A stretch of 61,887 bases of DNA, filler included, from 9 parts of 9 records of this genome joined end to end with filler, not necessarily neighbours in it; one strand, 5' to 3'. Counted from the first letter of the whole stretch, positions 3,183-34,749 are shown. Notes: generated by a model from the letters alone, not told the origin. Translations and numbers: made by a program.

Positions 3183-3328
3183 CCAGCCTCGATGACATGC
3201 AAGTCCGGCTCATTGTCATGGTCAAGCGCTGCCGATCCACCGATGCTGTGGCTGATCCGTGTGCACGTGGGGCCGGGGCGTGGGGCGCCGGTTGTCTAGT
3301 TGCTGCAGTTTGCTGCAGGGAAGTGGCC

Positions 3329-3697
3329 ATGCGGGGGGAGCTGCAGGGCATGGAAATCCCGGATGAGTATTTGCCAGTGGCGGTGGCAGTCGTCATCGGG
3401 TTGATATTGGTAGTGATACTGTTCCAGTGCGTCAGCAACGCTCAGATACGAAAGCTTCCGCGCCCGACAGAAGCTGAGCTGGCAGGCGACGGGGACTGTG
3501 TGCTGTGCAAGCGAGTGATGAGCGTGGCACAGCTGCACAAGGGTGGCGTCAAGAAAGTACCTTGTGGCCACTGCTTTCATCTCGAGTGTCTGGGGTTCTG
3601 GATGGGGCAAAAGGGCAATGTCATTGCACACCGATGTCCGCGGTGCCGAGCGCCGATCACGGGTGGCAGTGGAAGCATGGTACCCAACGACGAGTGA
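3329..3697 (+). CDS. Small membrane-anchored RING-H2 E3 ubiquitin ligase
   Basis: Hydrophobic segment LPVAVAVVIGLILVVILF followed by CVLC...VPCGHCFHLECL..W...CPRCR (C3H2C3 pattern). Confidence 0.85.
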   Translation: MRGELQGMEIPDEYLPVAVAVVIGLILVVILFQCVSNAQIRKLPRPTEAELAGDGDCVLCKRVMSVAQLHKGGVKKVPCGHCFHLECLGFWMGQKGNVIAHRCPRCRAPITGGSGSMVPNDE

Positions 3698-4506
3698 TGG
3701 CGCCCCAGGGGTCTGCTACAACACGTGAGCATACGCTTCCACTTGTAGCATAGTGCATTTTCTCCCAGGGCGTCTGGGGAGTGGCTAAGAGCTCTCTGTC
3801 GCGGGTGACTGGGCCCAGGCAGGGAGTGTGCAGGCCACAACCAGCTACTGCGTGCATCTCGCAGGCTGCGAAAACGTGAGCTTGCCTGCTGCAAGTTTTT
3901 CCACGCAGCCCACCTGGACATACGGGTCGGCGCCAATCGATACCGACGGCGCATTCATCTGTCCATGGTTGCAAAAGACAAGTGGCCGGGAAGCGACGCG
4001 GCACTGGCGTCAGCTGGGTTGCAGCTGGGGTTGCAGAGTGAGGAGACACGGAAACCATAGAATTAGATGACCTAGGTCAACGCTCATTGCCGTTGGTTTT
4101 GCTCTCCTCCGGAATCCACCGAAATTTCCACACATTCCTCCTCTTTTGCCCTTCACCTCTTCTAGGCCGATCTGCTTCCTACACCTGTACTCCGCAACTG
4201 CAACGAATGCAGCCAAAGCCACTGCCTAGACGCCCAACACGTAGCGCAGCCAAGGTCCGACTCTCTGACTCGAAATCACGAGGTCGAACCCACCGGCGAC
4301 GTTAGTGGCCGCAATCATGAGGCTCAATGTGCCCGTGGTCTAGTGGAATATCGTAACCAAACCATGATAGCGTGCACATGAATCATTAGTTTTACATTTA
4401 GGTCTACCGGTACTAGATCTAGTAGGTGTGTCAGATGTTGGATGATAATTATGCAATGTTGTTAATGCAGGTATTCATTCGTTCAATTTTGTGTAGCCGC
4501 GCTCAG

Positions 4507-6660
4507 TCAACCGTACTGAGTTATGGCCACCCGAAGCACGCCCAGCTCGATGTCCACTGCGGTGGAGCCAAGATTCTGGACAATCACTTGCACTCGCCCC
4601 TCGCTTGCGACGTTTGCCGCCACGAGCACCCGGGCCATGCCGACTTTTTCTAGCGCCTGATTGTATAGCCAGTACAATACGCTCACAAACTGATATTCAC
4701 ATCGACGACTGGGTAGGCTAGAGCAAAGATATTGCCTTATGCAGGAAAAAGATCGAGGTGAATGAACATACCGCAGCGGCCACATCTCCAGGCAACGCTC
4801 CATCAACGTCCATCAGGATGAAAGTGCTCCCACCCGGGGCGATGCTCTCTGGATCCCACAGCACCGTCCTTGCGATGTGGCGACGCAGTGTCGTATCGAA
4901 TGCACCTGCACCATTGCCCCAGAGCAGCGAACCATCTGACTCAATTGCAAGCCGCGCGAATGCCTCACCAGAGTTGCCAATCACGATCGGATGTTCAGCT
5001 GACTCCAACGTGTACGCGCTCACGTCGGAAGCATTGAGCGCATGCTGTCGGTTGCAATCCTTAGTGTCTGGAAGACAGGTCGCCATCCCCGTGAAGGAAA
5101 GCCCACCTGCAGTGCCCACCACCGCCGGACCGATAGAAGCGCCACTACCATTTACAACACCTACCACACACACACGAAAGTGTTTATCAGGAACGAAACC
5201 ATAGTCTCAAAATTCGAATCAAAATGCGCACTGCTGGTCGATAATATCATTTTCTTTCAATGCTTGCGCGCTGATTTACGCGCTTACCTGCAAGCGCTGA
5301 CTGCATCACGTTGACATTCTTGACCCTTCCAGTAATAGCTACCACAGCAGCAGGAGTGTCACCCGCGCCCATCACCGTCACTCCGTTCAGCACGCCTAAG
5401 CACGTCGCAGCGTACATAGCGTGATCTGGACACGAGATTCGGTTTGACTACTACGCCGCCGCCAAGCTTTGCACTTCCACACAAATGTCTACAGCTCCAG
5501 CCTTTTTGCACGCACCTCCGGGTTCCGTAAGATTGAAACGAATGATGCCAGACTGACTCTGGAGTGAAGAACCTTCCCCCGCGTCTGCTGACATGTATCC
5601 GTTCACTGTGATTTGACCAAAATTTCGCTCTTGTGCTGGCATTCGCATTCGGATTGCCGACGATATCGAGGAGTGGAGTGTCACTGGATTCTTGCACGAC
5701 GTTCTTGAATTCAAAAAAGCCAGCATCTGGTGGGCTGCAGCGTGGCGAGAGCTGCTGATATTGAATTCCTCCAAAGTTGAAGACGGTGTCAGTGATCGTG
5801 ACAAGATACACCTGGTTGACGGCTGCAGCACGACTTGGAGCAGTGCTCGGATTGTCCTGCCCACGAAAGATGACGCTAGGTCTTTTGCTGGTGTTGTGCT
5901 GGCCGTCGTATCCAGGCGGAGTGGCTCCAACAAAATTGCAGCTGTCAATATACAGCCAGTATACGTCGACAGCAACAAGCGCGGCGTGATCCTCTCTTGG
6001 AGTGATGACTTCAGGTGGTCCTCGCTCACCCCACTCCGTGACCGTGATGCTCACGCGAACCAAGTGAACGTCTGAAGTCGCGACGATGAGCACACCCACA
6101 CGCACTGCGTCGATCGCCAGGTCCTGCAGGGTCACTTTCGCGCCAGTTGAATATTTCCACCCCCAGTCGCCGACCTGGATGACAGGCGATGGGCTGTGGG
6201 TCCGTAGGACGGAGGCTGGCGTAGCATGCTGCCCGACCCCTCGCAGCTGGACGACCTGCCCTACGGAGCGCGGGCATCGAGGGCAGGGGTCGGAATCCGC
6301 CAGGACGACAGTTGAGTTGACCAGATACGCAGGAGGTCCCTTCGCTGGCGCGACTGGCCAGTGTGTCGCTGCTGGAATGAACACGCGGTTGTGGCAGCCG
6401 ATGGCGGACAGCAGGGTGTCGTCGTCGTCGGTGACACCGTCCGCGAACGCTCCAAAGCGCAGCAAGTTGACTTCGCCAGTGGACAGGATGTCGGCGATAG
6501 TACTGGCATTCTGACATCGCGGATCGCCGGCGGCTGGCGCTGCCTCCGGTACTGAACAGACGCTCGCGAGCATCAGTACCAGCACTGACAGCTGCAGCAT
6601 CAGCACTGATCGTGGCGCCGGCGGCACCCTCAGCATCCGCCCGTCACGTGACGATGGCAT
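4507..6660 (-). CDS. Secreted right-handed beta-helix (Pectate_lyase_3-like) protein with phage tailspike-type C-terminal module; 3 introns and one apparent 1-nt frameshift near 5620
   Basis: Signal-like LQLSVLVLMLASVCS; beta-helix cap motif VNLLRFGAFADGVTDDDDTLLSAI; introns 5396-5515, 5161-5287 and 4657-4771; C-terminus WDPESIAPGG...VDGALPGDVAAA|ALEK...VQVIVQNLGSTAVDIELGVLRVAIT. Confidence 0.75.
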
Positions 6661-7085
6661 CCGTCGCGCGAGTCGAGCGTATCGGCGTACAAGCGCACGC
6701 GCGCGCGCGCCGGCGGTATCGCACAGTACGCGCCATCAATATTGTATACATAATACAATATGGTAGCATTCGTGTATTACGCGCCATTAGCAAATTAGCA
6801 AAACGCGTGCGGTGTCGATAGACTGTATCAGTGCCCAGGTTGAGCTATGTCCTATGAGCTGAAATGCATACAATTGTACTCTCTGAGAGTACGCGCGCGC
6901 CATGGCTGCATCGCTCGCCGCACGCCGCGGTACTATGTATATATGCGTGTAGTACGCACGCGTGCGTGAGCGGCGACAGATAGGAGCTACGTAGCTAGCC
7001 CGGAGCGGCGCTAGCGGATCCAGCCAGCTGTAGGCGAGGGTCGCGGACGGAGTGCTGGCGCACTGACCTGCTGGTCGGCATCGAT

Positions 7086-10000
7086 ATGGCGGCTGTGGAC
7101 CCAGAGGCTCTGTCTCACCAGCGGCGCGCCTTGGCGCCGATCGAAGCCCTCGTGCGTGCCCTTTCTGATGCAATGGCAGGCAATGGCAAGATTTTTGATG
7201 ACGACGCCGCCGGGCAGCATTCGTCCAAAGCCCAAAGCGGGGCGGAGCAGCTGCGCTTGCTGCACGGCGCGCTGTGCCAGCTCGCCGGTAGGGATGGAGC
7301 GGCGGAGGAAGAGCTCAAACTCCCTGAGGCGGCAGAGGCGGCGGGGGAGCGGGTGCTCGGGCTGCTGGACGCGCTTAACGCAGCAGTGCGGCGCGAGCGA
7401 CAGGAACAAGGAATGCAGGACGTCGTCGGAGCTGGGACAGTACCCATGCCAATACTTGGGCTGTACGCGCTCGAGAAAGCGGTCGAGTTGACGCACTGCC
7501 TTAGTTTCTTCCCGCTGCTGTCGCCCTCTGTACGCCGAGCAGTGCCGTTTGCCGCGTCGCTGAGTCCAAAGGACAGTATAGGTGTAAGCGCGCCGCCTAC
7601 GGACAGCACACCGTATGGGGAGATCGTGGTCCTGACACGTGCAACAGAGGTGGCGGCTGCAGCTAGTACCGGGATCGTTCCCGTACCTGGACCTAGCATG
7701 GGGCTGTTCTCGTTAGCGCAGCGCAGTGTGGCGCTACTGACCCAGCTCAGCGAGGAGCTCCATCCTGCCTTCCTGTCTGTGCGCCACATCGCTATAGTCT
7801 TTGCGGCGCTGTTGGAGGTGTGCTACCATCCGGAAGCGCGCGCCACGCCAGACGGCGCTGCGCACGCACGTAGTTGCAAGCAGCTATGGATGGCGCTGAC
7901 ACAAGCTCTTCCGGCGCAGCTGCGTACAGACGCTCTGCTGGCTCTCCAGGCCTCCTCTGCCACGCCATCATCTTCCTCGACCGCTTCCATGTCCTCGCGA
8001 AGGCAGGTTGGAGTTGGCAAATCGCCGAAGTGGTTTATCCGTGCAGTGCGTTTCCAGCTGAGCCTGACCATTGCAGCGAACAAGGGCGTGTCGTCTATGC
8101 TCTCTGCTGTGTTGGGAACGGACCACGCTGACGATGACCGTGCAGTAAGTGCTGTGGCGCGGCTTATCGGAGACTATGGTGCACAGCATGCTCTGCTTGG
8201 GGAGCACACCCGACGGTACTTCTTGGCAGTGGGTAAGCAGGTCACATCGTTGCTCGTCGCTGGTCTGGAAGGGACGGATGTGAACATTGATGACGGTGCT
8301 GAGCCGCCTACTGTCGGAGCTGTTCCTATGCGCAGGGAAGGCAAGGACCAAGCTGCGACAGTCGCTGCAATGCGATCAGGTTCAGCAGAGGCCTGGCGCA
8401 AGGCGGCTGCAAAGGTGGCATCGGCTGCACTGCGGTCAGCGCCGCCTGAGATTGGATTTGACGCGCTCGTTGCGCCGTGCCTAAGCTCACTGGCAGCAGT
8501 GCTTCCCGATTTGAGCCTACCTACTGGTGATGTATCCAAGACCACTGCCGCGCGCACAAAGACCCTGGAGCCTGAGCCTGAACCAGAACCAGCACCTGCG
8601 AAGTTGCTGTGCAGCGAGGCATCATTACATCGGGCGCTCTTGGAACTTGCTTCGATGCTGCGAGGAACCGGTGCTCCTCGCCATGTAATAATGGCTCTGC
8701 CCACGTCGTTTCTGCGCTTAGTGTACAGGCTCACGGCGTTCGCAAGCCAGCGTGCACCGTTGGCCCCGGCACGCGCGCTGGGGCTGTACATCCTGACGAC
8801 AGTCTTCGTTGGACTCGGAAGGAGTGCTGCGATACTCTATGCCATGCTTGGTCTTGCGCCGCGCACAACTGTCGACGAAGGAGACGGAAGCAGAGGTGTT
8901 AGTACCAGCGACAATGATGCAGGAGAGTTTTCTGATGTTTCGCTGAGAGAGTTGGAATGGAGATTGGAGCTCGGACCCACCGGTGGCCTGCAGATTGTGA
9001 AGGTGGCCCTGGAATATGAAGCTACTAGTGATGGCGAAGAAGCACCAGGCGCTCATTACGCATCTGTGATAGATCAAGACATGCTGGTTGACGAGCAAAA
9101 AGGTCTATGGGATGGGGACTGGATGGCTCTTTTGGCTGGTGAGAGTCTGCTCGTAATCGAACTGCTCGAAAGTTGCCAGCCTACAGGTGACGGCAATCAT
9201 GAAGCGTCGCAGAAGCCGGCATACCCGAGCGAGCAACAGACATCTCGAGAGGATGAAGCTGAAGGATGTGTGAGTTGTGACGCAGAGTTGTTTGTGCTCC
9301 TGCTGCAACTTTATACCGAGCCTACACCGGCGGCAGCAGCTCTCGCACAGCCAAGGTCTGCCCCAATGCAGCTTCTGCACTGGAGGCAGGTGTGCAAGTA
9401 CAAATCAGGTTTGGTACTGGAGGCTTTGGCAACTCAGCGAAGTACAGCACTTTGCGGAAAGGCTTCGCTTCCAGTGCTGCTTCCAATGCTTGACTCATTA
9501 TTGCGGAAGCCGACAGATACACTCACAAGAACGGTGGCAGCTGCCACTAGAAACGCCGACGATGCTGCGAGCGCGTGCATACATGACCAGCCAGAAGGAG
9601 TTGCCTCTCAAGAGAGTATTTTTCTGTCTGGCGAGTCAGCTGATGAGCAGGCACGGGAACGGATCGCTGCTGCAGAGGGTGTGCGTGATGCTATCGATAC
9701 TTTACAGCTGGTGCTCGGTGTATTATTAGCAATATTCGATCCGGAAGTGGAGCGACTAGCAACGATGAGTGGTGGTGGGACAGATTGGAGCAGCAGTACA
9801 ATCGATGGCGGCAGTGCAATTGCGGCGGCTGCAGGAATCTTGCGCCAGATTGATCGGTTGACTTCTGCCGCCGATAATGGGCCGACAATGAAGCGAACTG
9901 AGAGCCAGAGGCAAGGGCAGGGTCAACCCAATGGCCGCCGAGTCTTTAGCTCGCCGTCTGAGCGTCTGGCTCTAGTAGCAGAGGAAAAGGAGGCAGCTAG

Positions 10001-10985
10001 TGCTGCAGAGTTACAGGCGGTAGTGCAACTAGCAGTCATTGTACGCATGCGCATCCTCGCAGCACTGTCTACTGGTTCCGATGCACGAGGCGACAGCCAA
10101 GCTGGTGGTGACAGCGAATGCGGTGGCACGGCAGCACCAGGATACGAGGGTAGCGTTGAGGCCCTAAGTGTCAGGGCGCGATGTGGGGACTGGGTGCAAT
10201 CCCTGCCCGCGTCAGCGATTGTTGCGCTGTCGGAGCTCGCCAGTCCGATGCCTCCCATTCGAGCAAAGGGTTTATCCGGATTAAGATCACTGCTGCTTGC
10301 ACGGCAGAGTGCTGTCATGGGTGCATTGAAAGAATTGGTCCCACTGATTGAAGAGGCAATGCAGGACCAAGACAGTTTCGTCTTTCTTGCCGCCATAAAT
10401 ACGCTGGTAGGGCTAGCTGATGTCGCTCCTTCGGAGGCACTACCTTTACTGGCGGCACGGCTGTCCGATGAGGCGGTTGAGACACCATTGCGGTTGATGC
10501 TGACGGAAGTGCTAGAAAAGGCCGCACGGCAGTGCGGAGATGTGTTGCCGCACTATGCGCCTCTCTTTGTCAACGCCTTTATGGGGGGTACGGGTTCGCA
10601 GCTTCCAGCGCTGCGATGCAGCGCTGTTTCTGCGCTGGGAACTCTATGCGCGAAGTTGCGCTACTCCCTCCAACCCTACCTCGTCGATATCGTGCCAACG
10701 GCATGCCACATGTTAGCTATGGATGAGGACACCTCAGTGCGCCAGGCCGCCGCGTACTTGCTGGCAGAGCTGGTCGCCGGGTTAGAAGACTCATTTTGGG
10801 ACATCTTGCCAGACTGGTTGCAACTACTGTACAATACACTGAAACGAGCTGCCTATGAGACCAGCAACACCGACGATGTGACGCGGCAGCACGCCGAGCG
10901 GGCGCTGGACGCCATAGGAGAGCGCGCAAGAGCGTTCCTGTTCCCGAAGACGAGAGTTCAGCATCCGAAGATACTAGAACTATGA
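7086..10985 (+). CDS. TANGO6: TANGO6/Rtp1-family ARM/HEAT-repeat protein, intronless, 1299 aa
   Basis: C-terminal RTP1_C1-like block LASPMPPIRAKGLSGLRSLL...AMQDQDSFVFLAAINTLVGLAD, then LRCSAVSALGTLC and SVRQAAAYLL; N-terminal PKWFIRAVRFQLS. Confidence 0.85.
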   Translation: MAAVDPEALSHQRRALAPIEALVRALSDAMAGNGKIFDDDAAGQHSSKAQSGAEQLRLLHGALCQLAGRDGAAEEELKLPEAAEAAGERVLGLLDALNAAVRRERQEQGMQDVVGAGTVPMPILGLYALEKAVELTHCLSFFPLLSPSVRRAVPFAASLSPKDSIGVSAPPTDSTPYGEIVVLTRATEVAAAASTGIVPVPGPSMGLFSLAQRSVALLTQLSEELHPAFLSVRHIAIVFAALLEVCYHPEARATPDGAAHARSCKQLWMALTQALPAQLRTDALLALQASSATPSSSSTASMSSRRQVGVGKSPKWFIRAVRFQLSLTIAANKGVSSMLSAVLGTDHADDDRAVSAVARLIGDYGAQHALLGEHTRRYFLAVGKQVTSLLVAGLEGTDVNIDDGAEPPTVGAVPMRREGKDQAATVAAMRSGSAEAWRKAAAKVASAALRSAPPEIGFDALVAPCLSSLAAVLPDLSLPTGDVSKTTAARTKTLEPEPEPEPAPAKLLCSEASLHRALLELASMLRGTGAPRHVIMALPTSFLRLVYRLTAFASQRAPLAPARALGLYILTTVFVGLGRSAAILYAMLGLAPRTTVDEGDGSRGVSTSDNDAGEFSDVSLRELEWRLELGPTGGLQIVKVALEYEATSDGEEAPGAHYASVIDQDMLVDEQKGLWDGDWMALLAGESLLVIELLESCQPTGDGNHEASQKPAYPSEQQTSREDEAEGCVSCDAELFVLLLQLYTEPTPAAAALAQPRSAPMQLLHWRQVCKYKSGLVLEALATQRSTALCGKASLPVLLPMLDSLLRKPTDTLTRTVAAATRNADDAASACIHDQPEGVASQESIFLSGESADEQARERIAAAEGVRDAIDTLQLVLGVLLAIFDPEVERLATMSGGGTDWSSSTIDGGSAIAAAAGILRQIDRLTSAADNGPTMKRTESQRQGQGQPNGRRVFSSPSERLALVAEEKEAASAAELQAVVQLAVIVRMRILAALSTGSDARGDSQAGGDSECGGTAAPGYEGSVEALSVRARCGDWVQSLPASAIVALSELASPMPPIRAKGLSGLRSLLLARQSAVMGALKELVPLIEEAMQDQDSFVFLAAINTLVGLADVAPSEALPLLAARLSDEAVETPLRLMLTEVLEKAARQCGDVLPHYAPLFVNAFMGGTGSQLPALRCSAVSALGTLCAKLRYSLQPYLVDIVPTACHMLAMDEDTSVRQAAAYLLAELVAGLEDSFWDILPDWLQLLYNTLKRAAYETSNTDDVTRQHAERALDAIGERARAFLFPKTRVQHPKILEL

Positions 10986-11098: not shown

Positions 11099-14000
11099 CT
11101 AATGAATAAACATGGCTGGCCCATCAATCGCAAGCAACCAGCCCTTTGCAGCGGGCACTTCGATTGTTGGCTTTGAGGCCGGTACATCGAGATCGGTTTG
11201 AAAGTTTTTGATCTCGCTAGCAGTGATTGTTGCAGAGACTGCCGACAATCCAAGCCTGGCCCAGTCGATGTTCAACGTGCAAGTTGTGTTGCCCGTGTTC
11301 GCCCAGCTAGCGACTGCTACCACAGCACGGGGCTTCTTCAACGTTGTCTCAGCGCCTGCCTCGCCGTACTGGGTCGCTTGGCTGCGCAAGTATACTGAGG
11401 CGAAGACTGCAGGCTGCGAACTGTTGCCTCCATGCTCAGTTATAGTTACAAGAGGCTTCGGGTCCCACCAACCCACCAATGCAACCCCGTCATCAACCAG
11501 TCCGAGCGAATCCCACGCTTTCCAGAGGTCTGGAGCTGGACGTGCGCCCTCAGCGAACAGCATGCCACGCCATAGATTTGGTGCTGTGAGTTGCTCAGCG
11601 TGTATCCCAAAGGGAATTCCCGACATTTCTACTAGCCACTGATCTGGTGGATAGTTGGGGGAGAACCCTTCGCCAAACCAGATCGAGTCGAGGAAAGCAA
11701 AGTGTGCCATGTAGATCAGGGCCGAGCAAGCATGTGGTGCGGAAGGGATCCCACAGTGGTACTTGTTGCAGGAGTGAAGGTCAAACAGACAGCCTGATCG
11801 GTGCTGGTCTACAGCTTTGCGCATCCGCATCATCGTCCCCCGGTCAAATGATAGCTCATCAAGGTATAAACCGTCTATAGCCGCAAACTTCGGATTATCT
11901 TGTGGCTGGGTGAGCCATTGCAGTCCCTGGATGTAGTAGTTCTCCCATCGAGTCAGACTTGTGTCGGCAATCGCTGCATCGGGGGATTCTCCACCACCAA
12001 GGCCGGTCGACCAGCGGACATGGTAGTCAGTTTGCAGATGTTCTTGAAGCCAGCTGGCGCCACCTCCACTCCCAGAATCAAAAAAGTGATCAATGGGAGT
12101 GGACAGCGCACGCAGCGTTGGCATTTCGTAACAACGATTCGAGAGCTCTCGGGTGGTATAGTAGATGCAAGTCGACTTCACTCCAAGAGACTTGGCCATA
12201 TTCGAAAAGTTGGCCTGCCTCTCCATAGCCATTGGGTTGAAAGCTGCAGCGCGCGCAACCAGCATGGATCAGGACACTCAGTGAAAGATGGAGTTGTCAA
12301 TATGGTGACGTACGATAATTGATGTACGGATTGAGATCCACGCCCTGGTGCAAATTGAGAATCTCGGTGCCCATGCCGGCAATCTCTGCTGGTCCCGCAT
12401 GTCCATTGTACCCGTATTGATAGTAACGATCACGGCGGAAGTGCCTCGGAGTATCCAGCTGCTTTGTTGGCGTGATCAGCAAATCAAAACGAAACATCAC
12501 TGGTGCATCCGGTGAGACGCTGACTATACCAGTCGAGGCTGTGATCTCTAAGCCACTGTTCGTTGGCAGAGCTGTGACCGCACCAGTTGCACCATCGCCA
12601 CCCCAAGATTTTGGCACAGTGGTGTCACTTTGCATGTGCAGCGGACTTTCCCAGTCAAACTCTGATCCCTTCAGCTTCAGCCGTAGCCCGGCGGTGCCCG
12701 ACCCAGCCCACAGCTGGTTCTCTCCACCCTTGTTTTGGCTCCAATGCCACTGAACACCCTCGGGATAACGCACTGAGCGATTGCCGCCAGTCTGAGCCAA
12801 CCCCATAAAGAAGGTTGAAGCAGCTTCTGGAATCGTCAGGGTCATCGTGGCATTTGTCAGTTGTTTCGTGTCGCTTTTCGTAGCCAACGAGAATGTCACG
12901 TCGACAAATCCGTCAAAGCTGACAACTACCGAACTGTTCAACTCGAGTGCACCATCGCTTGAACGAGTGACTGTTGCAATCGTCGCTGACATGTTGTCTT
13001 GCTGGACAACGCCTGGAGCACCGCCCGCGACCCATTCCACGCCCGGGACAGAGAATGAGATACCGTCAGCCACTACAGGCTGAGTGCGCACAGCAATGCT
13101 CTCGATCAGCTGCACCTTACTGCCCACAGTACCTGAGCCTACTTTGATCGTGCGTCCACCAGTGAGCGTCGCCATGGTACCCTCCAGCTCCAACGCATCG
13201 AATCCAGCAGTTATATTCCGATCGATGCCAACCCGTGAATCCAACCACCCAAGTCGCGCCATGCGCCACAAGTCATCCGCTCCAGCGTTGGGAATTGCCA
13301 CCCCTTGCACTACAAGGGAAACCTTGAGCTCTACTGCCTGCTGGCCCGCCTCACTCAAATGGACAGTTATCGTTCCAGTGTAGTTGCCGGCTGGCATTGT
13401 CGCTGGAACGTCCACGCCAAACCACAGCGCGCCAATGCCACGTGCTGGAATGGTTGTCGGCTGCTCAAACGTCGAGCCACGGTAGTCCACCCCACCAAGA
13501 TTGAAGCAACGGGTAGCGTTTGCTGATATAATGGCGTACTCCGATCGTAGGTCCGTCCAGCTCACATCCTTGGGAAGCAGTGTTAGGTTTACTGGGCCGC
13601 TGTTCCAGACACCGACTTGAAAAGCGAACAGCTCTCCCTTCGCTGCAGTGCCTGCGAGCAGCCTACTGGGACCACTATCAGCCCAGATCTGCGGGAGCTC
13701 ATCCAGCATCTTTATCTGGTTGGATCGATCCGTCGGAAAAAATTGCACTGGTTCCTTGTGCTTAGTCTGCATGGCGGCAACAGATGCCGCCGTAGCCACG
13801 ACTTCCATCGGCACGAAGCTTTGAAATGGCGTCTCGCTCTCAAGACTCACAGACAAGGCCTCAGGCAGATGTGGCCGAAAGCAGCCGTCGGAAAGGCAAG
13901 ACTGGCTCAGGTTGTGCTTTTGCAGCCATTCGGAGTCGGCGGTCTCAGTGTGTGCAGTGTAGTGTGCCTGTAGACTGAGGCCGGTCTGGCTGCCAGAGTC

Positions 14001-15150
14001 GGTGTATGGCATGTAATATAATGCGTATTGTGTTGCCATTGGGGCGGGCGGGGGAGGTGGAGGTGGTGGTGGTGGTGGGCCAGTTGGCGGGGCGTGACCA
14101 AACTGCACCTCCTTAATGTAGCTGTGCGACGGGGGTGTCTCGGCACTTCCACTGGTGCCACGACTCGAGATCTCCAAGCGGAAGTACCGAGACTTGCCTG
14201 CCGCACTTGGCCACCCATCAATCACGTTCGCGCCAGTTTCAGGATCAAGCACCAAAGAACCATTAAACAACGACTTCCAAGGCACTGTCGTGGCGCTGCG
14301 GCCGAGGAACGAGACATCCTTAGGGTTATGAATGGGCCACCATTGTGGGTCATCGCCCTTGGACACCGAATAAATGGCGAGTCTGTCGACAGGGGTTGTT
14401 GGCACAACCCCGAGATCCATCTCGAGGAACTCGACCCCGTCCTTGCCGGCTGCACCGTCCCAACCTTCGCTAGGGCGCCCAGGCGCATCGTTGAAAAGTA
14501 TTTTCCCATCAGCTGCTTTCCAGCAAGGCCAACTGTCCCCTTGACTACCACTGCAGGCTGTGACGATGCTCTTAGCCGCTGTGCCGTGGTTCACAATCCA
14601 GCCGTCCTTGTTAGGGCCTGGCGGAGCCGGCGGCACGCCACCCTCAGCCGTTGGCATGAACACGAACGTAAGTGCTTCGCTGTCCCGTATGCTCGGGCCG
14701 GCAGGAGATCGAACAACATTGCGCACCACATCCCCGGAGGATGCCACGGTGAGCACAGCCGCCGTTGTCGTCGTGTTCGGAACTGCCCGACGCTGCACAC
14801 AGTATAGAATAATGCGGCTTCAAGTCAATTGTGTGAGGAGAGATCGCCCGAGCGCTTCTCCCGTTCCCAAGTCGACTTGTGGGCGGGGGAAGAAAAGCTC
14901 GCGTTTTGCTCTCCAGTTCACATGAGTGGTACTACAAGTACGGGAGACGCACCTGCCAAGGGATGGTTGCGAATGCCGCTGCACCAGGTGTATGTGATTC
15001 GGGCAGCGTAATGATCGCCCGGTGCTGGCCCAGGCCGTGCACCCAGCTAAAATTTGCCATACCCGAGGGCATCAGTGTCGCATGCGCAGCGGCTCCCTCG
15101 GGGGCGGCGTGCGCCAGGAGCACCAGGGGGAAAGCCAACGAACACGCCAT
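11099..15150 (-). CDS. Secreted DUF6067-family (GH123-like) glycoside hydrolase with inserted F5/8 type C (CBM32-like) domain; exons 15150-14953, 14792-12314, 12243-11099
   Basis: Signal peptide MACSLAFPLVLLAHA; motifs LGQHRAII, IPWQ|RRA, YALYYMPY, LWRMARLGWLDS, NLHQGVDLNPYINY|PF, YYTTRELSNR, DGLYLDELSFDR and WLVEMSGIPFG. Introns 14793-14952 and 12244-12313 restore the conserved motifs. Confidence 0.85.
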
Positions 15151-26349: not shown

Positions 26350-26468
26350 AAATGATTTATTCCGGCCCGTGGAGAACCCATGTAGACTGACGCGCGCTGC
26401 CCGCGCGCCGCGCGGCGGCGAGACCTCATTACAGGGGACGAGGGGCTGCGCGCACGCACACTGGCGCG

Positions 26469-29400
26469 ATGGGGGATGACGCTGCCGAGCACTGGGCATG
26501 CTCCGGCTGCGGCTACCAGTACAACGCCCTGCGCTCCGCCGTCTGCGTCGCCTGCGATCAGAAGCGAGCGGGGCTCGGTCCGCCGCCTGCCATTCTGCCG
26601 CTCGCACCCGGGATGCCGTCGGCAACTGGTGATGGCTTTCAGCGCTTCAACAAGACCGTGGTTCCGACAGCTGCAGAAGCGGCAGCGGCAGGAAGCAGCC
26701 TGCTCGAGCCCGAGCGCCAAGCTGCGGTGGAGCGATCGCTCGCCCAGGCGGGCCAGGGGGGCGCGGAGAACATTGAGCAGCTGGTCCATGTGTTGCTCAA
26801 CGTCGTGCGTGAGCCGGACAACATGCGGTATCGGCGGTTGAAATTGACAAACCCACGCGTTGAAAAGTTGACCAGTTCACCGGGTGTTGCCGGCGTCCTG
26901 GAGGCCACCGGGTTTCAGCACACGCAGCACGAGGCACCAGTTACTGGTGGCCACGGGGCGTCTGAGACGGTGCCATATCTAGAGCTTGTGCCTATCCAGC
27001 CTGGCGACGTACCGCGCTGCGCTGCTGTCGCTCGGCTCCTGGAGAGCTGGCTGGTGCTGCGCCGGCGGATGCAAGCGTCCATGGCTGCTGGAACCGCGTC
27101 GGCTCCCGGCGCAGCTGCGCCAGACAATGCTGTACCCATACCAGCGCCAGCGCCGACGCACGTATCGAGCGCTCCGACGGCACCCCGGGAGCTCGATGTT
27201 GATCTATTGAAAACTGCCACAGGTGTTGGCCTGAACATATCAGAAGAAGGAGTCGTGAAGAAGGTAAGTACGCCGGAAGCATCCGCAGCTGGTGTGCTGC
27301 TCGGAGCGCAGATTATCGCTGTGAACGGAATCTGTGTGGACGGGCGCTCCGCGATCGTAGATGTGATGCGCGTGGTCAAAATGGGAAACGTGGTCAGGTT
27401 TACAATGCGACTACCTTCCGCTGCAGATAGTCACTGGAGCGGTGGAGACGATGAAGAAAGCCTTGCGCTAGCACGACGGCTGCAGCAAGAAGAACAAGCA
27501 TTTCAGCAGGCCCGCGTGGCGCTGATTGCGGAACGCCACGAGGAGGCTGACAGACATGCAGCACGCCAGTTGGCAGACGAACAGGAAGCGTCCCTCGCCC
27601 TCGCGCGGCAGCTGCAAGCAGAGGACGAGGAAGCTGGTCGTCGCGTGGACGTGCCAGGCACGGTGCTTCCTCCAAGTGGTTACCCTCTACCGCATGAGGC
27701 AGCTGGTGGACGCAACTCTGGGCTGGATCTCTCCCCCTCTGCTCTACGGTCCAGCCTCGACCGACAGCAGTCGGCGGCGGCGATGGATGTGTTTCGTGAG
27801 GACGAGCAAGATGCCAAAGCAAAGATTGCTGCAATCAATGCCGCATGTACAGCTGACGATCCATTTGTGGATCCTTCTTTCCCTCCAATTGCACGATCGA
27901 TTGGTAGAGCACAAGGCGACCACGGCGAGCAGGGACTGAGTGGGGCTGCAATGGAGCACTGCGAGTGGCGGAGGCCCCAGTCATTGACGCCGCATGACGG
28001 ATGGGGGCGAATGCTACAGCGGCAAGGGCAGTGGTCGGTGTTCAACGGAGACCCACTGCCATCGGATGTTGAGCAGGGGAGACTCGGAAATTGCTGGTTT
28101 CTCTCCGCACTTGCTGTACTTGCTGAGCCGCCCCATGGCCTCAGCCGTCTGAAGAACATTCTCGTTGAATCGGAGTATAATCCAGTGGGTGCATATGCAG
28201 TCCGGCTTTGTGTCGATGGGCTTTGGAGGACAACAATTGTCGACGATACTTTTCCGGCATTCGTGAAGCCGGGATATGTCCCACAGCTCCTGTTCTCCAA
28301 GTCGAAGCGTCAACAACTCTGGGTGCCGTTGATTGAAAAGGCCTTCGCGAAGCTCATGGGGTCATACGCCAACATAGAGTCTGGACGGTTGGTTGAAGCA
28401 CTCGGCCTGCTCACGGGCGCTCCGTGCGAAGATTTAGACCTTCGCGATAATGGGAAAAGTGGCGAGAGTGGTGTGGAAGAAGAAAGAGAAAGAGAAGAGC
28501 TGTTGTGGGCAAAGGTGATCTCGTATGACACGGCAGGATTTCTGATGGGTGCGTCTTGCTCCTCGCGCGGCAAGCGCGGTGAGGACAGCCGGGCACACAG
28601 GGAGCGGGCGGAGGCAGCAGAAGCGATGGGTCTTATCACGGATCACGCGTACTCGTTGCTGGCGGTAATGACGGTCGGCAGCACGCGACTTCTCAAGCTC
28701 CGCAATCCATGGGGTCGTAGTGAATGGCGGGGAGACTTTTCTCCGGGTCACCACAGCTGGACCGCCGAACTGCGCGCCGAGGCTGCGCATACGCACGCGG
28801 CAGGGGCAGGCAGCAGTGCAGAGGGTGGCAGCGGCATGTTTTGGATGAGCTGGCGTGACTTTTTGACTTATTATGCGACGTTGACTGCTTGCAAGCTACG
28901 GCCTGACTGGATGGAACGAAGAATTGCGCTACCGAAAGAACTCGCGCAACGCGGTATGCTCGGGAGTTACACATTCACAGCTCTAAAGCTGAATACCTTT
29001 GCCCCAACCTGGGCGGAGTTGACAATTCAACAGAAGAGTGGGCGCTCGCGAAAGTACGACGGTGGGGTGACCATGGGTGATGTCGGCTTGATGGTTGTTA
29101 AAGTGCCTACGACCGACCGAGACCTGCAGCGGTATGATCGCTGGAGTCTTGTCGGTGATTCTTCTCGAAAGATAGAGACATTTTCAGCATGTGAGGTTCA
29201 CCTTGAGCACGCAGGTGGTGACAGCGATACGACCTATATTGCGATCCCTACATTTGGCTTCAATCGCTCTGTGGATGGCGAGACCGATTCCACTGGGGTG
29301 ACCATACCAAGAGCCAGCGATACAAGAGAGGTTGCTGGGCCAGCGTGCTGCGTCTTCTCGGCGCATCCGCTTACGATTGAACCCGTGCAGCTGCCACTAC

Positions 29401-29843
29401 GCGCGCTTGCCGCGGGGTTGCTGCAGCGCTGCAAAGCGCACGGATCAGTGACTGTCGTGCGTGGCCAGTCGGGACTTGGTGGCTTCTTTGGCGCAGAGGA
29501 GGAGGTTGGGCGGTTCTATTTGCTTCGACATGACAGTGGGTGCGTTATCGCGGCGGAGAACTGTCATCCTACTCTGGCACTCCAGCTGACAGTGAGGATT
29601 TCTGGCAACAATATTGGCTGCTCGCGTGGCCGTTACGGCCACAGTGGCTTCGAAACCACTGATGTGGTGGCACCATCCTGCTCGCAGTTGCTGCGATTAG
29701 ATACACAAATTGTGGAGGAGAGTGGGTACTCGTACCAGATCAGCACCCAGTACAGAGCTGTCGCGAATGCACCACATGGCGGCAGCTCGGACCCATCCGT
29801 GGACCCGCATGGGCTTCACGCGCCCTTCCCGTCCTTTACTTGA
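26469..29843 (+). CDS. SOL/calpain-15-type cysteine protease with RanBP2 zinc finger, PUB, PDZ-like and UIM-like modules; intronless, 1124 aa
   Basis: Catalytic triad QGRLGNCWFLSAL, DHAYSLL, LRNPWG; ZnF WACSGC...CVAC; PUB LLNVVREPDNMRYRRLKLTNPRV...VLEATGF; SOL-like C-terminus AAENCHP...CSRG...TTDVVAPSCSQLL...GLHAPFP. Confidence 0.9.
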   Translation: MGDDAAEHWACSGCGYQYNALRSAVCVACDQKRAGLGPPPAILPLAPGMPSATGDGFQRFNKTVVPTAAEAAAAGSSLLEPERQAAVERSLAQAGQGGAENIEQLVHVLLNVVREPDNMRYRRLKLTNPRVEKLTSSPGVAGVLEATGFQHTQHEAPVTGGHGASETVPYLELVPIQPGDVPRCAAVARLLESWLVLRRRMQASMAAGTASAPGAAAPDNAVPIPAPAPTHVSSAPTAPRELDVDLLKTATGVGLNISEEGVVKKVSTPEASAAGVLLGAQIIAVNGICVDGRSAIVDVMRVVKMGNVVRFTMRLPSAADSHWSGGDDEESLALARRLQQEEQAFQQARVALIAERHEEADRHAARQLADEQEASLALARQLQAEDEEAGRRVDVPGTVLPPSGYPLPHEAAGGRNSGLDLSPSALRSSLDRQQSAAAMDVFREDEQDAKAKIAAINAACTADDPFVDPSFPPIARSIGRAQGDHGEQGLSGAAMEHCEWRRPQSLTPHDGWGRMLQRQGQWSVFNGDPLPSDVEQGRLGNCWFLSALAVLAEPPHGLSRLKNILVESEYNPVGAYAVRLCVDGLWRTTIVDDTFPAFVKPGYVPQLLFSKSKRQQLWVPLIEKAFAKLMGSYANIESGRLVEALGLLTGAPCEDLDLRDNGKSGESGVEEEREREELLWAKVISYDTAGFLMGASCSSRGKRGEDSRAHRERAEAAEAMGLITDHAYSLLAVMTVGSTRLLKLRNPWGRSEWRGDFSPGHHSWTAELRAEAAHTHAAGAGSSAEGGSGMFWMSWRDFLTYYATLTACKLRPDWMERRIALPKELAQRGMLGSYTFTALKLNTFAPTWAELTIQQKSGRSRKYDGGVTMGDVGLMVVKVPTTDRDLQRYDRWSLVGDSSRKIETFSACEVHLEHAGGDSDTTYIAIPTFGFNRSVDGETDSTGVTIPRASDTREVAGPACCVFSAHPLTIEPVQLPLRALAAGLLQRCKAHGSVTVVRGQSGLGGFFGAEEEVGRFYLLRHDSGCVIAAENCHPTLALQLTVRISGNNIGCSRGRYGHSGFETTDVVAPSCSQLLRLDTQIVEESGYSYQISTQYRAVANAPHGGSSDPSVDPHGLHAPFPSFT

Positions 29844-32304: not shown

Positions 32305-34749
32305 TCATTTCGGGTCGAGCCGCAGATACACAGAGGCTCCATAGCCGTCGATTGTAGCCGAAACACTGTTGCTACCATCAACAACAGTGAAAAACTCGAG
32401 ATTTGGCTGTGGAACATGTGGCACTCCTGTCACGACATTTGTGACTTTGAAGCTGCTGCCGCTACTCACACCGGCCTTTGTGAGGCAGGTGGCGTTGCAT
32501 ACTACCGTCGTCGGCTTCTGCATGTTGTTGATGAATAGCAGCGCAACCGATTGTCCTCCTTGTTGATCAAATTGGGGCTGCTGTGCGCCTGGAGGCGGAT
32601 CACTGAGCGGCCGGCCAAGAACTATGGTCTCTGACTTGATTTTCGAGCCGCCATTCGCACTGGTCACACACATGCCGTCTCCATTCGTAAGCTGCTTAGT
32701 AACCTTATCATATCTGCCGCAGGGACATATACACAGCATCAACAGCCACACAGACCAAATTGTGCCGTTGGCAACGCAACAGATGTGGGTTGAGTGGATG
32801 GGTGAGAAAGAAACGGTACCGAGGCTTGCAAGTATCTCAAAGATAATTACTTGGGATCTGCAGCTGTGCAGTACTTACTTCCACTTCTGTGTGGAGCCGA
32901 CAGGTGTGACACACTTCGCAAGGATGACAGTTTTGTCCTTCTGCGCTGTCGCGCACAATCCCGAGGGCAGCTTAGTCTGCAGCATCCCTTCGGCAGTCAA
33001 CGTCCATTCATTGTTGCTACCTACACGTGCACATGAAATTAGTGTAAAACACGGTTGCGGGTAGTACATGGATAAGGCAACCCCAATGTCAAGCCATATG
33101 GAGAAAAATCAACTGCCTCTGTTGCTGCTCCTCGAGCACGATGCTATTGCTGAGGCAAACGAGGACGGAGCACCCATTATGTAGCGTCTACTCGCACGTA
33201 CCGTCCCGTGCACAGGAGCTCGTCTTGTTGCACGCTTGGTACGTAATCCAGGTCTGACACGTCAGCACATTGAGACAGGTTTTGGTCGCCGTATTCGATA
33301 TGTGTCCCTTGCCATCCATATCCCACATCTGATTCTGCGGTTCCCCGCCGCACTCCGCTAATGACATCTGCCCATCAGCTCCAGCACCTTGACGGGTTTC
33401 GGCAACAACAATTGGAGTACGAGTACCCGTGCTGCCGTCGACACGTACCGCAGGAATCCCAGCACTATCCTGATTGATTGCTCTACACACGGGAAGGGTG
33501 ACGTGGAAGAAGAGAAACAGATGGCAACAGTTAGCCTCATACACACCAAGAAAGAAGATGCTGCATCTTACAGCATGCGATCGTTGGTCCAGGTCCCCAT
33601 CACAAATGGATTCAATTTGGCGAAGTCGCCTACGAGCAGCAGATTGAATGCCATGACTGTCCAGATCGAATACATCGACACGAAGCGAGCGTTAGTCATG
33701 CAACTGTCTGATGGTGTAGAGTCCGTTGGGCTGTCGCCCTTGTGGCAACCCATGCCAGGGGTCAGCTGCAGGCTCCCATCATTCCAATAGCCGCCGTTCT
33801 CTGTGGGCCCAGCATCAAGGCTGACGGGCAGGGCGTTGTCGAGATTTGTCAACACCGCTGTCCACCCACCGCCAGTGTCGGGCCCAATCCGTGCTGAATT
33901 GGCGAGGCCTTTGCCATAAGGTGCGTAGAAAGGCATCCAGCCGCACAGTGCATACCAGATGGGGTACCCGCTCTTGTTCATCGCATTGCCCATCTTTCGG
34001 TAGAGCGCGATAGCCTCCGCTTGACCTTTAGCGACAGGTTTGACGTTGCGGTCGGCGGCATAGCAGGCATCTGACTTGAACCAGTCGATCTTGTGCTTGC
34101 CAAGCCACGCTCCGTCTGTCTCCTCGTGTCCAAATTGTCCAGGGTTGCGAGCACAGTCCATCGTGCCCCGGTCTCCGTACAGACCGAAACCAAGGCCTAA
34201 CGAGTGAACGTAGCTTACAGTGTGGTCGAGACCGCTTGGCCAGAGTTTCGGATCAGGGACAAGCTCGCCTGTGGTAGAGCGATTCGGGAGGTCCCACGAT
34301 GCATCCATATTCACATAGTGAAAACCAAGTTCTTGCAGTGTCTTCTGACCACCCGTTGCCTTATACTTGACGGTGTGCATGTGGTCGGCGATGTGCTTGA
34401 CGAAGACCTCGTCGCCATAGCCTTCCGTGTGCACGCCCTCGCCGTACAGACCTGCTTGCAGCAGCGGACCCTGCGCGCAGTCCCCACGTAACCAACCAAC
34501 CCAGGCAAGACACGGAAAACTTTGCTCAGAAAGGATGGAATACTCGAAAACCATTCAGTGTAGCTGCAGGCTCGCTGTCTGGAAACTCAAGCGAGGCAGC
34601 AGTTGCAGACGATGCTGGCGACGCACGCTGCAGTTGGTGCAGTAGTCCGAATTCCAGCCCAAACCCGGTCGCCTGCCCAGCCCATTATCCAGGGCCTGTG
34701 TCTGTGTGGTGTAGAGCGCCATACCTACCGCCAGGCCGATGCGCATCAT
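32305..34749 (-). CDS. Secreted GH27 glycoside hydrolase (alpha-galactosidase family) with ricin-B lectin repeats and C-terminal beta-sandwich, multi-exon
   Basis: Signal peptide then ALDNGLGRRPGLGWNS; YVNMDASW, FGLYGDRGTMDC, IDWFKSDAC (nucleophile), RIGPD (acid/base), AINQD; QxW lectin motifs NQMWDM and TQKWK. Confidence 0.9.

Follow-up and report, generated by a model that had tools for sequence, protein, structure and literature searches.

A spliced gene of a tailspike-like family, likely picozoan, with a terminal module homologous to phage tail-fibre C-termini

How does a protein laid out like a bacteriophage tailspike come to be encoded by an intron-bearing gene among eukaryotic neighbours, and what might it do there? 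The gene that raises this question lies on the minus strand of the stretch of DNA analysed here (61,887 nt, hereafter the window) and runs from an ATG at 6660 to a TGA at 4507. The original prediction saw in it a phage-derived polysaccharide depolymerase whose virion anchor had been replaced by a secretion signal. The gene, its parts and its two neighbours are as follows, in window positions.

5516..6660 (-): exon 1, residues 1-381, with the leader, the cap and most of the beta-helix; donor at 5515 placed by an RNA joint
5396..5515 (-): intron 1, GT..AG, 120 nt; joint in RNA run X16
5288..5395 (-): exon 2, with RNA joints on the flanking introns
5161..5287 (-): intron 2, GT..AG, 127 nt; joint in RNA run X18
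4772..5160 (-): exon 3, with the end of the beta-helix, the connector and the first half of the terminal module
4657..4771 (-): intron 3, GT..AG, 115 nt, within the terminal module; joint in RNA run X15
4507..4656 (-): exon 4, the rest of the terminal module
6553..6660 (-): likely signal peptide by hydropathy, hydrophobic core at about residues 19-36
6394..6471 (-): cap motif of the beta-helix, resembling PF12708; of seven long family members scanned, six exceed the PF12708 cut-off
5087..6393 (-): body, about residues 90-442 in exons 1-3, predicted from the AF2 model of the relative P0086 to be a right-handed parallel beta-helix
4877..4969 (-): connector (residues 482-512), a single unit of a tandem repeat of phage fibres
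4507..4867 (-): terminal all-beta module, about residues 516-596, split by intron 3 and shared with phage tailspike C-termini
5619 (-): extra base (frameshift) in the window assembly, absent from other samples
7086..10985 (+): divergent neighbour, a TANGO6/Rtp1-like HEAT-repeat gene (RTP1_C1, E 1.6e-21, and HEAT repeats)
3401..3697 (+): convergent neighbour, a RING-H2 gene (zf-RING_2, E 2.5e-7)

The gene is transcribed and spliced. All three spliceosomal introns that had been predicted, including the one inside the terminal module, are confirmed by joints in metatranscriptome contigs (one contig per joint, in three RNA runs from three studies), and the X15 contig carries in addition a loose end matching the exon 1/exon 2 join. 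Contigs of run X6 are unspliced and were left out of the expression evidence. The start and stop had been placed correctly, but an extra base in a homopolymer at about 5619 had been overlooked: with it, the literal frame of the window stops after residue 393. This base is missing from all three DNA runs that cover the site, from two RNA runs and from the public protein P0002 (a third RNA contig ends at the site), so the common allele is open and encodes about 596 residues. The extra base most likely stems from an error in assembly or amplification, less likely from a rare null allele. Among 12 of the 46 indels between samples, it is the only one in coding sequence, a sign of constraint between samples. 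A fourth intron or a recoded stop was considered for the frame change near 5619 and ruled out, the cause being the extra base. Two TAG codons at 5453-5448 call for neither recoding nor an additional intron, both lying inside intron 1, and the three introns do not appear to be copies of one element (local scores of 18, against shuffled means of 18-21). The initiator is ambiguous between Met1, Met9 and Met21, and the homolog P0006 starts at the equivalent of Met21. Third-position GC content is 0.62, compared with 0.55-0.60 in six other genes of the window, and the protein has seven N-glycosylation sequons and nine cysteines.

The setting is eukaryotic on both sides. The RTP1_C1 match and HEAT repeats fit TANGO6/Rtp1, in agreement with the head-to-head arrangement first proposed, and an independent contig (X1), spanning 3300-5211, links exons 3-4 to the RING gene; none of the contigs listed bridges the gene and the TANGO6 frame. 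Besides the RING-H2 gene, a WD40 gene lies downstream, and calpain, TPH, AAA, C2 and LRR genes are found farther off. The gene is thus not part of a phage or prophage structural operon, nor, with TANGO6/Rtp1, RING, WD40 and GH123_N neighbours, does it belong to a bacterial gene cluster for polysaccharide synthesis. No second copy of it is present in the window. The upstream region shared with TANGO6 (6677-6870) shows many indels and substitutions between samples, unlike the coding sequence.

Sequence comparison shows that the terminal module shares ancestry with the C-terminal ends of many phage tailspikes, the best matches being Ralstonia phage tail fibres. The family member P0012 matches PHROG 19253 (phrog_19253), which represents the DU_RP_I-type Ralstonia phage tail protein, over positions 692-805 of 806 (E 3.2e-7). 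Eight of 19 further family members match this profile at their C-terminus and a ninth at its cap; the matches cover positions of about 690-805, plus 308-380 in one member, rather than the whole profile. In tblastn, two family members reached Ralstonia phage tail proteins at E 1e-3 and 3e-5; the records name these proteins tail fibre or 'bacteriolytic protein'. The module of phage RP13, used as a query, retrieved 35 phage records, 24 of them at E 4e-6 or better; they include phages of Acinetobacter, Sulfitobacter, Escherichia, Klebsiella and Aeromonas, and several are annotated as tailspike or tail fibre. Furthermore, a family profile scored 12-55 bits in 16 of 17 phage or viral-contig proteins, always at the C-terminus (reversed decoys, 2.4), and hhalign aligned the family with the Ralstonia phage proteins at a probability of 96% over 91-112 columns. 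Ten of the 13 named phage carriers are 687-878 residues long, and four of these ten have an N-terminal Pfam virion-anchor domain. The recurrence of the module at phage tail-protein C-termini, as first proposed, is thereby substantiated. This link emerged solely through other family members and profiles: tblastn with exons 3 and 1 of the window and with P0012 gave nothing below E 0.2 among 50,697 phage records. A word-based search of long proteins for the C-terminal 125 residues was positive in none of 1055 candidates, and the module had no match in plasmids.

The module also occurs as a short stand-alone protein (L016:1880-2374, L019:4509-5006, L021:7932-8249 and L023:7881-8195), which adjoins the major capsid gene in the last three of these loci, all prophages. 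This form likely decorates the capsid or serves as a head fibre; the module belongs to no Pfam family. Its presence in short proteins beside capsid genes suggests a general role as the end-piece of virion fibres.

The connector, too, recurs in phage fibres, as anticipated. Residues 482-512 are identical at 13-19 of 31 positions to the best repeat in each of eight fibre-like proteins (shuffled maxima, 10-11). The repeat occurs several times in tandem in those proteins, and the window protein has one unit. A search with one fibre-like protein found 16 phage records, 15 of them Streptomyces phages, whose matched genes include annotations as virion structural protein, tail fibre and tailspike; several of the fibre-like matches also match PHROG tail families. 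The connector region aligns only weakly in the Ralstonia proteins, and the module is missing from the fibres that match the connector best. No prokaryotic protein was seen in which beta-helix, connector and module all match clearly.

At the other end, the protein is predicted from hydropathy to enter the secretory pathway. The best 11-residue hydropathy of the leader is 2.72; a similar N-terminal peak (2.25-2.96) is found in all 11 other long family members, and later 19-residue stretches never exceed 1.74. All 12 long or N-terminally complete proteins, several of them near-copies, thus combine a hydrophobic start with the lack of any later transmembrane-like segment. In long members the cap follows the leader within about 60-100 residues, and no anchor family is matched. 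Exon 1 of the window gives no match to PF12708 at E 0.5, and the one long member that fails the cut-off of 27 bits scores 26.5. The hydrophobic stretch, cap motif, connector and terminal module of the original prediction are all present in the sequence.

The body is predicted to be a right-handed parallel beta-helix, which agrees with the long beta-rich stretch noted at first sight. A model of exon 1 alone (pLDDT 61) matches beta-helices; P0086, an intact relative of 611 residues that is about 30% identical to exon 1, gave an AF2 model with pLDDT 83 and pTM 0.81 that is all beta after the cap and reaches pLDDT 91-98 in its last 100 residues and 92-98 in the terminal module. Compared with 48,161 PDB representatives, this model has Z scores of 20-26 to many beta-helices, headed by PfbA (Z 25.9, rmsd 3.2, 309 residues aligned) and Geobacillus virus E2 ORF18 (Z 25.2), with alginate epimerase/lyase, polygalacturonase and several tailspikes close behind. 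Since PfbA and a phage protein tie, the fold neither separates cellular from phage kin nor shows catalysis. Four of the 50 best PDB rows align as far as the last domain (residue 609-611), namely 6e1r, 9qrm, 7w1c and 9k4a (Z 18-24, rmsd 7-9), all of them phage tailspikes or depolymerases. In a viral fold library, the second match is a protein of 795 residues, equal in length to ORF44 of Ralstonia phage RP13. The C-terminal half and the module profile had no sequence match in the PDB, and neither the window exons nor seven long members matched GH28 or another eukaryotic pectin-lyase-like family in Pfam. Polar residues conserved in the body are W235, R260, R266, Y285, Q303, E324, D332, D359 and N376; by alignment row, conservation is 21/24 for E324, 19/23 for D332, 27/28 for D359 and 14/15 for both R260 and R266, among members that are only 30-40% identical to each other.

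What had been taken for a single gene belongs to a large family. With exon 1 as the query, 11 environmental proteins came up at 53-100% identity; one is the window's own frame, and the homologues are 53-99% identical. A profile of the C-terminal half gave 129 matches at E <= 0.001 among 1.84 billion cluster representatives. By motif, these divide into 23 tandem-repeat fibre proteins, two unrelated repeats and 104 others; one of the latter, P0136, is also fibre-like, which leaves about 103 family members or fragments. These are clusters at 50% identity and do not equate to genes, because many are fragments. The terminal module is nearly complete in 53 clusters, with a mean mutual identity of 32%. 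Three of 20 clusters looked up carry a taxon label, in each case Picozoa (EukProt SAG22 once, COSAG04 twice), and no labelled member outside Picozoa was found among the 20. The source is thus likely a marine protist of the Picozoa. Pattern scans, which reach close relatives, found no family loci in viral contigs or JGI metagenome contigs.

Taking these observations together, we lean towards the view that this is a spliced and expressed nuclear gene of a likely picozoan; that its product is predicted to be a secretory beta-helix protein with the layout of a tailspike minus the virion anchor, likely cleaving polysaccharide; and that its large family arose from the phage tail-fibre pool. Judged from sequences and models, the family is an expanded, tailspike-like and likely glycan-cleaving one, undescribed in the literature searched. 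The leader, identified by hydropathy, would direct the protein into the ER, from where it may reach the cell surface or a food vacuole. A putative trimer, of the kind that tailspikes form, would be kept together by the fibre-type connector and the terminal module, and a groove on its beta-helix, with E324, D332, D359 and nearby Arg, Tyr and Trp residues, may bind and cut an anionic glycan. The many divergent copies could cover many types of bacterial capsule, LPS or EPS in the colloids that Picozoa ingest. An ancestral picozoan would likely have taken the gene from the phage or prophage tail-fibre pool, directly or via a bacterium, after which the gene would have gained introns and multiplied.

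One study concludes that Picomonas does not eat bacteria but colloids below 150 nm, possibly holding bacterial LPS (PMC3608682), so free capsule, LPS or EPS fits better as a substrate than whole encapsulated cells. The same study allows that small viruses may enter Picomonas in the way colloids do, which would offer a route for gene capture. A more far-reaching scenario, which we put forward only tentatively, is that an ancestral picozoan captured a whole phage tailspike and that a signal peptide took the place of its anchor. Expansion would then have yielded dozens of trimeric depolymerases, each for a different bacterial capsule, LPS or EPS, a toolkit that would enable life on marine colloids.

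Among known systems, the closest include the Ralstonia phage tail fibres of PHROG 19253 (DU_RP_I p035, ATS93396; RSK1 ORF17, BAO04682; P4282, BAB13694). Like the family, they have a PF12708-type cap, a long beta-rich body and the same module at the C-terminus, 28-29% identical to that of the window protein over 83 columns. Unlike it, they carry a virion anchor (Phage_T7_tail, Head_binding) and have neither introns nor leader, and the bodies do not align. The activity that the P4282 record names reportedly comes from a published study. The solved tailspike depolymerases (Geobacillus virus E2 ORF18, 7chu; Fri1 gp49, 6c72; vB_ApiP_P1, 6e1r; Kp32gp38, 9qrm; K1 lyase, 7w1c) resemble the predicted structure of P0086 (Z 19-25, at 9-16% identity): in both, beta-rich C-terminal domains come after a right-handed beta-helix. 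From sequence and model together, the family protein most likely works like a tailspike depolymerase, although the family cannot be counted among the phage enzymes, for it lacks both anchor and phage context. PfbA of Streptococcus pneumoniae (3zpp) and the GH28 polygalacturonases share the beta-helix fold (Z 24-26), but their alignments end by model residue 482, they have neither connector nor terminal module, and no Pfam match ties them to the family.

Two precedents concern tailspike-fold proteins or tailspike parts that serve a cell. WceF of Pantoea stewartii (6tgf; Z 20.1), encoded in a bacterial EPS cluster, is a trimeric glycosidase with a tailspike fold that works for the cell and not for a virion (PMC7949094). 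It is bacterial and acts on the producer's own biofilm, whereas the picozoan family is eukaryotic, intron-bearing and expanded. The intramolecular-chaperone (ICA) domain of MYRF is a tailspike-derived part domesticated in eukaryotes (PMC3742466); there, a self-cleaving chaperone is fused to a transcription factor, whereas the family keeps a likely catalytic helix and the C-terminus together.

WceF also lends weight to the main competing origin, in which the same enzyme-like protein came from a cellular bacterial gene of the WceF/WcaM type in an exopolysaccharide locus, with the anchor already lost or never there, and the phage link is one step removed. We consider this rather unlikely. In Nitrospira moscoviensis, a protein with PF12708 and the same module and without an anchor (L020:7110-8249) is encoded in an exopolysaccharide locus, next to GT4s, an asparagine synthase, heparinase II/III and WecG; it is a WceF-like candidate. 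In an alphaproteobacterium (L022), a 717-aa beta-helix and module protein lies between curli and methionine-synthase genes, so that helix and module occur together in two bacterial loci outside any visible prophage. The Nitrospira protein gives an 85% hhalign match to the family over 205 columns and the best cap match among module carriers (80.6%; a control lacking the module reached 80.0%). In addition, many bacterial transfers have been inferred in Picozoa (PMC8599508). Against a cellular donor, the module of the Nitrospira protein scores 14 bits compared with 50-55 in Ralstonia phage proteins, the connector is absent from both cellular proteins, and there is no plasmid match.

The module tree bears on the same point. 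Of its 79 modules, 56 belong to the family, assumed throughout to be picozoan, and 23 are prokaryotic; it has 84 columns, is unrooted and leaves out family rows with fewer than 65 filled columns. Its sample is phage-biased; family queries retrieved the Ralstonia rows, phage queries the remaining prokaryotic ones. The Ralstonia trio falls on the family side of a branch with support 86/98, and the other 20 prokaryotic rows fall on the opposite side, both cellular modules clustering there with phage rows and away from the family. In the best tree, one family row (P0045) lies among prokaryotes; a single family clade is not rejected (p-AU 0.41). Short, unrooted and phage-biased as it is, the tree can suggest a donor but not demonstrate one.

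Genome samples, in which only 4-11 candidates were scored per genome, indicate that the module is rare. On the Pseudomonadota side, 3 of 401 genomes match (the centre, one prophage and one likely false match in the middle of an unrelated 308-aa ORF), and 1 of 401 with a module-weighted profile; in the Nitrospira phylum, 1 of 201 matches and the known L020 protein was missed; in the Paenibacillus phylum, 2 of 301 match (the centre and a weak match with two stops). Both true new matches lie in prophage tail operons, a further point against a cellular donor.

Returning to the origin from the phage tail-fibre pool, the verdict from sequence is that the family is of phage-world ancestry. The claim of phage ancestry stands for the terminal module and connector, which match phage fibres; a phage source of the beta-helix was not borne out, since none of 13 prokaryotic proteins that carry the module aligns with the body past its cap. 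As for the proposed exchange of anchor for secretion signal, several phage carriers do have an anchor where the family has its leader. That the exchange took place inside the eukaryote was not upheld: anchor-less cellular versions such as L020 exist, so this timing is not established. A prophage tail gene with the module (L032:9514-11823) starts with a leader-like stretch, and anchor loss could therefore have preceded any transfer. Tail-region gene products with signal-peptide-like starts were also seen at L032:4756-12929 (G542) and L008:2115-5255, several of them behind a tape-measure gene.

A different function, rather than a different origin, would make the protein a non-catalytic glycan-binding adhesin or lectin, PfbA-like or akin to a receptor-binding fibre, whose role would be to capture colloids, viruses or bacteria at the cell surface or cytostome. 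Many tail fibres bind only. PfbA, the top fold match, is an adhesin, and P0083, P0088, P0098 and P0100 extend past the module into further domains, a common trait of binding modules. Lyases, hydrolases and epimerases, however, make up most of the remaining top fold matches; none of the 12 proteins has a transmembrane stretch after the leader; and E324, D359, R260 and R266 are near-invariant, as counted on sequence rows. We regard pure binding as improbable, and a cleaving enzyme remains our preferred reading.

A eukaryotic chimera, in which a native pectin-lyase-like helix gained a short phage-type C-terminus, or an old gene family widespread in eukaryotes, seems very improbable. Alignment to prokaryotic proteins by sequence is confined to the last 115-165 residues, and the best matches differ between the connector (actinophage-type fibres) and the module (Ralstonia phages). 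Yet all three labelled members are picozoan, neither GH28 nor any other eukaryotic Pfam family matches, and phage proteins have cap, helix and module in the same order and at similar total length: in DU_RP_I, the cap lies near 315 and the end at 812; in the window protein, near 64 and at 596. Tailspike bodies are normally too divergent for mutual alignment, so the missing body match is to be expected. Finally, the idea that the gene is dead or is contaminating DNA of a phage or bacterium, to which the frameshift in the window copy and the viral and bacterial DNA carried by Picozoa single-cell assemblies (PMC3608682) might point, is largely refuted, to the point of being negligible, by three spliced introns, eukaryotic neighbours on both sides, the independent contig that joins the gene to the RING gene and the absence of the frameshift in five other runs.

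The diet and digestion of Picozoa are an open question: the sole culture was lost, and microscopy pointed to colloids below 150 nm (PMC3608682, PMC8599508). The family offers concrete, clonable candidates for digestive or capture machinery, about a hundred potential polysaccharide-active enzymes. Eukaryotes that use a near-complete phage receptor-binding enzyme would be rare, and this would be such a case; the known precedents are bacterial (WceF) or based on another tailspike part (MYRF). Were the capture of a whole tailspike true, Picozoa, abundant plastid-less relatives of red algae, would be specialised recyclers of bacterial surface glycans. We found no prior description of a picozoan tailspike-like family in the literature searched, subscription papers and the supplements of Picozoa genome papers aside; the available text of PMC10268365, which came up for Picozoa, glycoside hydrolase and polysaccharide, does not mention it.

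The window is rich in glycan enzymes. Just past TANGO6, 11102-14819 (-) encodes a large secreted-type glycoside hydrolase (GH123_N, E 3e-109 and 4e-89, in two frames), and 33571-34554 an alpha-galactosidase (Melibiase_2). A calpain catalytic domain is combined with a RanBP zinc finger and a PUB domain at 26391-29843 (+).

In the family members with an extra domain after the module (P0083, P0088, P0098 and P0100), a K-[T/S/A]-D-D motif marks the junction, 5-15 residues past the module; in P0010 it lies before the cap, and in the window's frames it does not occur. Picozoan polyproteins may be processed at this motif. The repeat unit of the phage fibres closes with these letters too, be it by chance or by ancestry.
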